From: Candidatus Rhabdochlamydia sp.
Lineage (GTDB): Bacteria > Chlamydiota > Chlamydiia > Chlamydiales > Rhabdochlamydiaceae
Reading direction: 5' to 3'
Assembly: GCA_051648645.1 (NCBI GenBank)
Contig: JBOFFP010000001.1
Span: forward strand, 352,001-416,000
DNA: 64,000 nucleotides
Under the pieces are notes generated by a model. It had not been told where the DNA came from, did no database searches, and was given only the letters and a program-made list of their open reading frames with translations. This document shows, in pieces, positions 27,976-29,986 of the stretch (its first letter is position 1; each line of letters begins with the position of its first letter). The position numbers and the translations under genes were made by a program.

Positions 27976-28158
27976 TTAACAATACTCGCTACAGCCATAG
28001 CAATTTGATGGCATGGTACAATGACCACCATGAGAACCTAAATTCACATCTTTGTGTGGGTTTATGGATGGGTCTATAGCCTTGAGTTCAATATCAAGAT
28101 CATATAGATCATTAATTGAGTGTAGATGACTTGTTTGAGCGGTCTGAGAAATTTGCAT
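27976..28158 (-). CDS. lanA: Lanthipeptide precursor A3 (60 aa)
   Basis: Leader DLYDLDIELK; core GSHGGHCTMPSNCYGCSEYC; GGAGG RBS. Confidence 0.9.
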   Translation of the reverse strand: MQISQTAQTSHLHSINDLYDLDIELKAIDPSINPHKDVNLGSHGGHCTMPSNCYGCSEYC

Positions 28159-28394
28159 AAAACCTCCATTTAATTCCTTTATATTTTATAAAGGATGAGA
28201 ACATCTTAAAATTTTTTTTGTTTTTATCAACAAAAAAAATTAAATAACTTAGCTCATTGTATCTTCTCGAATGATTTGAAAGTTTTTGATCTGAAAATAC
28301 ATTTAACAAAGAGAACTCTAAGAAGATAATCCTAAAAGAGTTTTCTCTAGCAAGTTGCTTATGAAAAAAAGAAAAGACTTATTCTTTTTCCTCT

Positions 28395-28562
28395 TTAATT
28401 ACATCCCATTGTTGGGCAGCCAGTACTGCATGTCCATTCGCTTGGATATAAATTCGCATTTTCATGTAGGTTTACGGATGAGCCCATAGCCTTAAGTTCA
28501 ATATTAAGATCATATAGATCATCTTCATAATGAATGGTTTGATTAGTCTGAGAAATTTGCAT
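28395..28562 (-). CDS. lanA: Lanthipeptide precursor A4 (55 aa, not in ORF track)
   Basis: Hand translation MQISQTNQTIHYEDDLYDLNIELKAMGSSVNLHENANLYPSEWTCSTGCPTMGCN. Confidence 0.9.
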   Translation of the reverse strand: MQISQTNQTIHYEDDLYDLNIELKAMGSSVNLHENANLYPSEWTCSTGCPTMGCN

Positions 28563-28913
28563 AAAACCTCCATTTAATTCGCTTGTATTTTATAAAGGAT
28601 TGAAAAATAGTCTTAAATTTTTTTTTGTTATTATCAATAAAAAAAATTAACTGACTGTTTGTGTCCGTAGGGAATATTTTTTAGCTCATCGTATCTTCTC
28701 AAAAGGTTCTATGCTTTTTGAATTGAGAACACTTACTACTTTATGGACCAGAAAGCATCTGGATAAGCCGTCCTTGGCAGGTAGTTCATCTTACAGAAAA
28801 TTTGATAAATAAGATAAAAAATTTTTTATTTATCCCATAATCAGACAAGGCTATCTTTTGACAGATTCTAATGGAATCATAATAGAAAAGGATAGGAAAA
28901 AAGAGCTTTATCT

Positions 28914-29081
28914 CTAACCACAATACATCGTTCCGCAGGTAGGAGAGCATTGCCACCTAGTTGATTCTAAATCTGCATTTTCGTGTGTGTTTATAGATAA
29001 ACCTGTAATCTTGAGTTCAATATCAAGATCATATAGATCATCTTCGTAAAGAATAGATTGATTCATCTGAGAAATTTGCAT
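28914..29081 (-). CDS. lanA: Lanthipeptide precursor A5 (55 aa, not in ORF track)
   Basis: Hand translation MQISQMNQSILYEDDLYDLDIELKITGLSINTHENADLESTRWQCSPTCGTMYCG. Confidence 0.9.
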   Translation of the reverse strand: MQISQMNQSILYEDDLYDLDIELKITGLSINTHENADLESTRWQCSPTCGTMYCG

Positions 29082-29170
29082 AAAACCTCCGTTTAACTCC
29101 TTTATATTTTATAAAGGATGAGATTAGTCTTAAAATTTTTTTGTTATTAATCAATAAAAAAATTAAATAA
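29082..29170 (-). promoter_or_regulatory. Conserved ~90-bp upstream element of every lanA cassette (example copy)
   Basis: TTGATT/TTGATA, A-rich spacer, TAAGAC/TAAGAT, CCTTTATA-3nt-TATAAAGG palindrome, GGAGG-like RBS; similar copies near 22540, 26242, 28159, 28563, 29464, 29785. Confidence 0.75.
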
Positions 29171-29216
29171 ATATTTGAGCACAAAGGGAATGTTTTTTAG
29201 CTTAAAGTATGATGAG

Positions 29217-29254
29217 CATGGAATTAGGAAAAATGTCTTTTTTCTAATTCCATG
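29217..29254 (-). terminator. Stem-loop downstream of precursor A6
   Basis: CATGGAATTAG...CTAATTCCATG. Confidence 0.7.
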
Positions 29255-29304
29255 AATAAAGCAAAACAAGGAAATATTGTCTCTTGGCAGCCTAAGAAAC
29301 AACC

Positions 29305-29463
29305 TTACTCAAAACAGCAATTTGTCAAATTTGTAGTAGTGGTTGGAGTTAAATTCACATTTTCGTGTAGGTTTATAGAAGAGTCTACAGTCTTGAGCTC
29401 AATATCAAGATTATATAAATCATCTTCATAATGAATGGATTGATTAATCTGAGAAATTTGCAT
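29305..29463 (-). CDS. lanA: Lanthipeptide precursor A6 (52 aa)
   Basis: MQISQINQSIHYEDDLYNLDIELKTVDSSINLHENVNLTPTTTTNLTNCCFE; start re-assigned to the ATG after GGAGG. Confidence 0.88.
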   Translation of the reverse strand: MQISQINQSIHYEDDLYNLDIELKTVDSSINLHENVNLTPTTTTNLTNCCFE

Positions 29464-29574
29464 AGAACCTCCGTTTAATTCCTCACGTTTTATAAAGAAT
29501 AAAAGTGGTGTTAAATTTTTTTTATTTTCAATCAATAAAAAAACATAGCATTTTTTGGTTGTTTACTCATCAGG

Positions 29575-29606
29575 AAATGAGGATTTCTCTAGATAAATCC
29601 TCATTT
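29575..29606 (-). terminator. Stem-loop downstream of precursor A7
   Basis: AAATGAGGATTT-8nt-AAATCCTCATTT. Confidence 0.7.
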
Positions 29607-29625
29607 TTTTTGTAAGAGTACTGGT

Positions 29626-29784
29626 TTAACAACCAGTTGTGACGCAAGCCGGAGTGCATACCGCCCCGCTTAAATGCACATTTTCGTGTATATTCATAGA
29701 TAAGTCTATGTCTTTGAACTCAATATCAAGATCATATAGATCTTCTTTGTAGTGATTTATTTGAATACCATGAAAACTTTGCAT
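29626..29784 (-). CDS. lanA: Lanthipeptide precursor A7 (52 aa)
   Basis: MQSFHGIQINHYKEDLYDLDIEFKDIDLSMNIHENVHLSGAVCTPACVTTGC; start re-assigned to the ATG after GGAGG. Confidence 0.9.
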   Translation of the reverse strand: MQSFHGIQINHYKEDLYDLDIEFKDIDLSMNIHENVHLSGAVCTPACVTTGC

Positions 29785-29986
29785 AAAACCTCCGTTTAAT
29801 TCCTTTATGTTGTAAAGGATGAGATTAGTCATAAAATTTTTTTTTGTTTTAATCAATAAAAAATTAAATCTCATCTGGATGTTTGGTAGGAAAAAAATTT
29901 AGAGATCGTAGTATCTTCTCGAATGGTTCTAATCCTTTTAAGTAAAAAATTTATCAAAAGAATATCTTGATGCCGCAAACATGGTT

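Follow-up and report, generated by a model that had tools for sequence, protein, structure and literature searches.

Class I lanthipeptide clusters with more than one precursor gene include the nisin O cluster, the pneumococcal pld locus and clusters of Bacteroidota. The prochlorosin system (ProcA/ProcM) of marine picocyanobacteria is reported to encode many precursors per genome, with a conserved leader, diversity focused on the core region and many indels, and its mechanism of diversification is described there as still unresolved (bioRxiv 10.1101/2020.03.09.984088). With respect to the Chlamydiota, nisin-like clusters are mentioned in PMC12506125, and a lanthionine synthetase orthologous group is described as specific to one chlamydial species in PMC11317633; a literature search, supplements aside, returned no report of Rhabdochlamydia lanthipeptides, the only co-mention concerning another organism. 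Here we describe a class I lanthipeptide locus in a 64,000-nucleotide stretch of DNA from Candidatus Rhabdochlamydia sp. (assembly GCA_051648645.1, contig JBOFFP010000001.1, positions 352,001 to 416,000 of the forward strand), termed the window, in which all coordinates are given unless another contig is named. In its behaviour the closest analogue of this locus is the prochlorosin system; by its enzymes it is a class I locus of the nisin/gallidermin type.

The locus occupies 22.4-30.0 kb of the window on the minus strand, with the gene order A7-A6-A5-A4-A3-lanC-A2-lanB-A1, where A denotes a precursor gene; an eighth precursor copy, A8, is present on a separate contig (C8) of the same genome (1.67 Mb, 35.5% G+C, 12 contigs). 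A profile search with the upstream block plus leader recovers these eight copies, seven in the window and A8 on C8, at E <= 3.5e-34, the next match in the genome having E 0.21. Seven of the precursor open reading frames (ORFs) are intact and encode 51-60 residues, that are alike in the N-terminal half and have tails rich in Cys, Ser and Thr, every intact core having 2-4 Cys and several Ser/Thr residues. The original prediction, made from the sequence alone, was that the precursors are self-contained expression cassettes amplified in tandem, with starts of A7-A3 that are 321, 382, 519 and 404 bp apart; these spacings are exact (ATGs at 29784, 29463, 29081, 28562 and 28158, minus strand), and further copies start at 26241 (A2) and 22539 (A1, a remnant), in addition to the eighth on C8.

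The available evidence makes it probable that the eight class I precursor units are duplicated cassettes, each with a conserved 5' module, a variable 3' module and a promoter and hairpin of its own. By this proposal whole cassettes of 0.3-0.5 kb would have duplicated, five of them remaining in tandem (A7-A3), with A3 coming to stand before lanC, A2 before lanB and A1 after lanB, and with A8 inserted at a distant site. Selection on the promoter, the untranslated region (UTR) and leader recognition would keep the 5' module alike, recombination or gene conversion confined to this module probably also contributing, and the 3' modules (core plus hairpin) would diverge or be exchanged. To judge from the motifs, each unit would be transcribed from its own promoter, with transcription ending at least partly at its own hairpin, and the A3 and A2 transcripts would read through into lanC and lanB, respectively. 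The genes of the locus in the window are as follows.

29626..29784, minus strand: A7 precursor gene, 52 aa, core SGAVCTPACVTTGC
29305..29463, minus strand: A6 precursor gene, 52 aa, core TPTTTTNLTNCCFE; orthologue P0006 in another metagenome-assembled genome (MAG)
28914..29081, minus strand: A5 precursor gene, 55 aa, core ESTRWQCSPTCGTMYCG; orthologue P0003, with 1/17 core positions changed
28395..28562, minus strand: A4 precursor gene, 55 aa, core YPSEWTCSTGCPTMGCN
27976..28158, minus strand: A3 precursor gene, 60 aa, core GSHGGHCTMPSNCYGCSEYC; orthologue P0009
26379..27689, minus strand: lanC, 436 aa, PF05147 with E 9.7e-61
26086..26241, minus strand: A2 precursor gene, 51 aa, core SILCTGRSDCICY; orthologue P0007
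22755..25828, minus strand: lanB, in two frames of 90 aa and 932 aa (three-frame reading)
22411..22539, minus strand: A1 remnant, with leader codons 1-19, an in-frame TAG and a core like that of A4; the latter half of the leader is lost (about 100 nt)

Read 5' to 3', a unit is composed of a T-run, TTGAT[TAC], an A-rich spacer, a hexamer starting with TA, a short hairpin, GGAGG, the leader, the core and a hairpin of its own. The -35-like TTGAT is invariant in 8/8 copies, 72-75 nt upstream of the ATG, and is separated by the A-rich spacer (16-18 nt) from -10-like hexamers of the TAAGAC, TAAGAT or TAATAT type. The 5' UTR contains a short palindrome or hairpin, TCCTTTAT...ATAAAGGA, in which 93.7% of 63 cells are paired, as against 46-68% when the partner strand is slid, with two compensatory pairs and several G-U pairs, three of the latter in A6. 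A GGAGG Shine-Dalgarno sequence precedes the ATG by 4 nt in all eight copies, as read from the alignment, and the leader of 38-40 codons has a DLYDLDIELK box and a conserved H-E-N-x-N-L end. A block GTATCTTCTC(G/A)AA, predicted to recur near 28259, 28691 and 29911, is found at exactly these positions and nowhere else in the 1.67-Mb genome; when one mismatch is allowed the scan gives four matches, as against 0.32 expected, and 0/100 shuffles reach four. This distal 13-nt block, TTCGAGAAGATAC, is a piece of a longer distal upstream homology common to A3, A4 and A7, which A8 also has, with a small deletion, the alignment of the distal A4 part with the sequence upstream of A8 reaching to about -156. 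The upstream elements in the window are as follows.

29785..29923, minus strand: A7 upstream module, with GGAGG, 5' hairpin, -10-like TATGAC and T-run
29851-29856, minus strand: A7 -35-like TTGATT
29911-29923, minus strand: A7 distal block GTATCTTCTCGAA
29464..29558, minus strand: A6 upstream module, with -35-like TTGATT at 29530-29535
29082..29176, minus strand: A5 upstream module, with -35-like TTGATT at 29149-29154
28563..28703, minus strand: A4 upstream module, with -35-like TTGATA at 28632-28637 and distal block GTATCTTCTCAAA at 28691-28703
28159..28271, minus strand: A3 upstream module, with -35-like TTGATA at 28225-28230, -10-like TAAGAT and the palindrome at 28176-28196
28259-28271, minus strand: A3 distal block GTATCTTCTCGAA
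26242..26336, minus strand: A2 upstream module, with -35-like TTGATT at 26310-26315
22540..22634, minus strand: A1 upstream module, with -35-like TTGATT at 22608-22613

The border between the conserved and variable parts of the units is sharp. Mean identities over the 21 pairs of the seven intact copies, A1 being left out because it is truncated, are 0.52 at -170 to -96 (shuffled 0.51), 0.78 at -95 to -1 (shuffled 0.56), 0.77 in the leader (shuffled 0.53), 0.49 in the core (shuffled 0.47) and 0.50 in the first 100 nt of the 3' flank (shuffled 0.52), i.e. similarity is at chance level past the leader/core border. Both the common upstream block of about 90 bp and the steep fall of similarity where the core begins, as originally proposed, are thus borne out. 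Consistent with this, when the seven window copies are matched to A8 by BLAST, every alignment ends 110-128 nt past the A8 ATG, the A8 leader being 117 nt long. In the upstream block 22% of the sites differ among copies, which does not exceed the proportion of non-synonymous leader sites that differ (pN, 0.21) and is below that of synonymous ones (pS, 0.35), so that the constraint on the block is like that on non-synonymous sites.

Whole-unit duplication is supported by the insertion of A8 and by homologies of A1 with A4 and of A6 with A8 that extend beyond the leader. The A8 cassette, with the core NYNQTVTCATCPGQCL, is an insertion of about 533 bp at 18675-19207 of contig C8 (L001 1676-2208), directly after lepA, made up of about 230 nt of upstream sequence, a 168-nt gene and about 135 nt of downstream sequence with a strong hairpin. 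The insertion site, between a convergent transporter gene and lepA, is empty in two congeners (G006 and G002), in which the gap between these genes is 0 and 84 bp, respectively. At the junctions no terminal inverted repeats were seen by eye, and a possible TTAA at both is uninformative in such AT-rich DNA. With respect to A1, the core and 3' hairpin align with those of A4 over 92 columns at 74% identity (local score 40, shuffle maximum 18), and the in-frame TAG of A1 stands where A4 has Trp. A6 and A8 have a common 3' hairpin, with the highest 3'-flank identity (0.61) and, as read by eye, compensating changes in the outer stem. Two further candidates of this kind were rejected: a mosaic origin of A1, with the leader from a copy of A2 type and the core from one of A4 type, since the 57-nt leader identities (0.89 to A2 and A7, 0.84 to A4) are indistinguishable; and a relationship based on the TCATCP common to the A8 core and the precursor of a second cluster of the genome (on contig C12, see below), which has no support at the DNA level (score 14, reached by 11/500 shuffles).

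Comparison between strains bears on how the variable part has changed. The public MAGs with homologous precursors are labelled Candidatus Rhabdochlamydia sp., and one of them encodes near-orthologues of A2, A3, A5 and A6. Over these four orthologue pairs 17/154 leader positions and 8/64 core positions are changed; the cores change no faster than the leaders, which makes steady core hypermutation unlikely, and since the cores are conserved between strains the precursor peptides look functional, as judged by sequence. The proposal of replacement or rapid divergence of core and 3' flank is thus upheld with regard to the unequal divergence among copies, and not with regard to an ongoing rapid change of the cores; module-wise recombination or conversion is a better fit than steady core hypermutation. 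The same MAG encodes a further precursor, P0008, of which the first 19 residues are those of A1 (19/19), joined to a core that has no relationship to the A4-like one retained by A1. P0008 probably stands at the A1 position in its own genome, since its accession number is four before that of the A3 orthologue, which fits the order A1, lanB, A2, lanC, A3 with an intact lanB. Contigs from two DNA sequencing runs (X1 and X3) span lanB-A2-lanC-A3 at about 98-99% identity and fragment in the array, where their joints lie between leader copies, one with 28 letters that are absent from the window; these joints hint at either real rearrangement or repeat-induced assembly breaks.

At their 3' ends, 6/8 units have flanks for which only 0-7 of 200 shuffles fold as well. 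The four stem-loops of the original prediction lie where they had been placed, three of them folding far better than shuffles and that of A5 being weak. The 3' hairpins in the window are as follows.

29575..29606, minus strand: A7 3' hairpin; 66-nt flank -16.7 kcal/mol, z -4.2, 0/200 shuffles as good
29217..29254, minus strand: A6 3' hairpin, homologous to the A8 hairpin; 1/200 shuffles as good
about 28804..28838, minus strand: A5 3' hairpin, A/U-rich and weak; z -1.3, 26/200 shuffles as good
28364..28391, minus strand: A4 3' hairpin, with an A-run/U-run stem, homologous to the A1 hairpin
22413..22446, minus strand: A1 3' hairpin; 1/200 shuffles as good

From the motifs and patterns described above we infer promoter and terminator activity, modification of the peptides and a recombination mechanism, and several observations weigh against these steps. 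The -10-like box is a weak match to the consensus, ending in C in 6/8 copies at the spacer that all copies with their TA start have in common; a scan with consensus promoters gives 23 hits in the region, compared with 31.3 in shuffles, and flagged the TTGAT/-10 pair only for A3; and an alternative pair, TTAAGA-N16-18-TAAAAT, which overlaps the palindrome, is intact in only 3/8 copies. The covariation of the 5' hairpin is not significant and is therefore only suggestive, since 76/500 shuffles reach its score. None of the 3' hairpins has a trailing U-run, and none is listed by a terminator scan. The metatranscriptome run X7, which contains 23% of the sampled words, yields contigs on parts of lanB, lanC and flanking genes that touch the cassettes only with short conserved pieces; because these contigs carry no start, end or strand information and the library may contain DNA, they give no verdict on transcription of the cassettes. 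Within the 5' module, a test for recombination by homoplasy gives a borderline result (pairwise homoplasy index, PHI, p 0.016-0.10 by window). Finally, with lanB out of frame in the assembly and A1 reduced to a remnant, partial decay of the locus is possible.

Some of these features would also be at home in a single polycistronic operon transcribed from upstream of A7, in which the conserved block would be an element of translation, RNA stability or processing, and the 3' hairpins, as attenuators or stabilisers, would determine how much precursor is made relative to enzyme. All genes being on one strand with short gaps, the hairpins lacking U-runs and the weak -10-like box are in its favour, as are the G-U pairs in the A6 5' hairpin, which fit a role at the RNA level. 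In nisin-type operons there is read-through past a hairpin that follows lanA, which also speaks for such an arrangement. However, the invariant TTGAT and T-run are well upstream of what translation needs, the orphan A8 brought its upstream sequence along, and A2 and A1 retain the block though lanC and lanB separate them from the array, so that a single operon appears unlikely. Per-cassette, i.e. self-contained, expression is suggested by the recurrence of the motifs with each unit.

With similar odds against it, it may be that no special process has operated, i.e. that the copies are old duplicates with purifying selection on promoter and leader and saturation of the rest, the border being simply the edge of constraint. 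The leader dN/dS of about 0.5 is in keeping with such selection. In A1, A4, A5 and A7 the cores retain a common C-[ST]-x-x-C-x-T-x-x-C scaffold, and, as described above, core change between strains is no faster than leader change, both of which favour this reading. By contrast, leader codons for the same amino acid are identical at a frequency of 0.815 as against 0.522 expected from the genome codon usage (449 non-independent pairs), e.g. a Leu codon is CTT in 7/7 leaders with an expected identity of 0.23, and the non-coding 3' flanks are no more alike than shuffles. Old duplicates under plain drift would not be expected to have near-alike synonymous sites beside saturated flanks, since drift should erase both, nor does drift readily accommodate an A1 leader joined to unrelated cores in two strains. 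Divergence among the segments is therefore not uniform; uniform divergence across leader and core, which had been named at the outset as the outcome that would speak against whole-unit duplication with a changing 3' part, is not what is seen.

Within the duplicated-cassette proposal, either conversion homogenises the 5' module, or the 3' modules are replaced, or the synonymous sites are under selection. The nearest neighbours of the copies vary along the 5' module. A more far-reaching possibility, which we put forward tentatively and regard as rather doubtful, is that the 5' module acts as a portable homology arm, by which cores and 3' hairpins would be exchanged between cassettes, loci and strains, such that the locus would be a recombination-driven natural library of class I lanthipeptides in a chlamydial genome that is reduced and host-dependent, independent of the class II prochlorosin radiation. 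This idea is based on the unsaturated synonymous sites of the leader beside saturated flanks, on the A1 leader being on different cores in two strains, and on the 533-bp orphan insertion together with mosaic contigs in other metagenomes.

With respect to the enzymes, the dehydratase domains of LanB are clearly recognised (Lant_dehydr_N plus Lant_dehydr_C; PF04738 E 3.7e-124, PF14028 E 4.1e-48), and the matches of LanC to the models of LanM and LanL are weak, partial and far below cut-off. A Pfam search of the window gave no gene for a transporter, a protease or immunity, no LanT, LanP, LanFEG or regulator genes were found near the locus, and Rfam gives no family match in the cassettes. At a run of nine A (25593-25601) lanB switches reading frame, which separates the N-terminal 90 aa from the 932 aa that follow; the cause may be a miscounted homopolymer, a common error in assemblies, or a break specific to the strain. 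Contigs of two other DNA runs are one letter longer over spans that contain the run (X3, 1860 letters over 1859 places; X5, 319 over 318). That the locus is a decaying relic, with a broken lanB, a remnant A1 and other small ORFs no longer expressed or modified, might be read from the frame change, from an A1 with half its leader gone and an in-frame stop and from the absence of the accessory genes looked for, but with seven precursors intact, four of them with near-identical orthologues in another MAG, with the longer X3 and X5 contigs, and with an accession spacing in that MAG that fits an intact lanB, it is the least probable of the alternatives.

The flanks of the locus contain two other ORFs of note. 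Immediately upstream of the array, at 29987-32131 (minus strand), is a 714-aa ORF to which no Pfam family matches. A 577-aa ORF at 34521-36254 has a eukaryote-type ubiquitin C-terminal hydrolase domain (PF00443, E 1.5e-32), such domains being typical of intracellular bacteria that interact with hosts. The genome has chlamydial hallmarks, namely DUF818 and, as read by eye, a candidate nucleotide transporter ORF.

The precursor family is narrowly distributed. The profile matched two of 41 related genomes, one of them the window's own; the other match (G019, E 0.008) was rejected as spurious, being in a longer frame with no Cys-rich tail. Scans of two contig collections (genome_contigs and metagenome_contigs) gave 151 and 238 pattern matches, none of which was confirmed. 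By contrast with the sparse literature, LanB is more common in the phylum than that literature suggests, the LanB N-terminal domain being present in 40/401 sampled phylum genomes (own included) and in 29/212 genera. The same genome has a second intact class I locus, at 162084-166734 of contig C12, with a lanB of 1026 aa, a lanC of 434 aa and only one precursor (66 aa), whose leader is of another type (EVFDLD box); a genome of the same genus (L021) has a precursor of this C12 type. In 20 lanB neighbourhoods of other chlamydial genomes a crude motif filter finds at most three precursor-like ORFs per locus; one tandem precursor pair there is 43 nt apart, and another, duplicated pair (L034) diverges evenly (0.67 upstream, 0.76-0.80 in the coding sequence, 0.81 downstream). 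The pattern of the window locus is therefore not the phylum rule; among the loci compared, the combination of a repeated promoter-like module and unequal divergence is present only there. As a separate observation, four of the other loci (L025, L033, L034 and L037), in genomes of different genera, have ...SLCTPGC...SFCC cores beside lanB that are nearly alike, and by their sequences these precursors look like a widespread conserved lanthipeptide type of the phylum.

If expressed and modified, the precursors of the window locus and A8 would give as many as seven distinct lanthipeptides with a single enzyme pair in a host-associated genome of 1.67 Mb, in addition to the second intact LanB/LanC cluster on C12. 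This would be an unexpected investment for a reduced genome and would point to competition or host defence in arthropod or protist hosts. Being compact and tractable, the locus also lends itself to the question raised by the prochlorosins, i.e. how diversity comes to be focused on the core with an unchanging leader; non-coding DNA belongs to the conserved part in this case, and one unit insertion appears datable, its site being empty in relatives.

Compared with known systems, a leader/core pattern of this kind is already known from other bacteria, and is present here in the LanB/LanC system of a Rhabdochlamydia-like genome. As in multi-precursor class I clusters elsewhere, several tandem lanA genes are served by one LanB/LanC pair. 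The locus resembles the nisin and gallidermin clusters in having LanB plus LanC, an [FLY]-[DN]-L-[DN] leader box and a hairpin after the precursor gene, and is unlike them in the number of different structural genes, eight as against one or two. The relationship at the precursor level is at the margin of detection: with the Gallidermin model PF02052, A7 scores 21.8 bits (cut-off 21) and the strain variant P0008 also passes, the other six intact precursors of the genome giving no hit there or with any other precursor family, and with TIGR03731 A7 scores 17.4 (cut-off 29.3) and the other precursors give no match.

The likeness to the prochlorosins is in the conserved leader, the core at shuffle level, the many precursors, and the location of some copies away from the enzyme gene, which here applies to one of eight (A8). 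By contrast, the prochlorosins have a class II, LanM-type enzyme and a Nif11-type leader, so that the present locus, with its separate LanB and LanC and its DLYDLD-box leader, is not a member of that system; they number dozens, compared with eight copies here, and, unlike in the prochlorosins, the conserved part of the units in Candidatus Rhabdochlamydia sp. is not confined to the leader and reaches about 95-170 nt upstream of the ATG.

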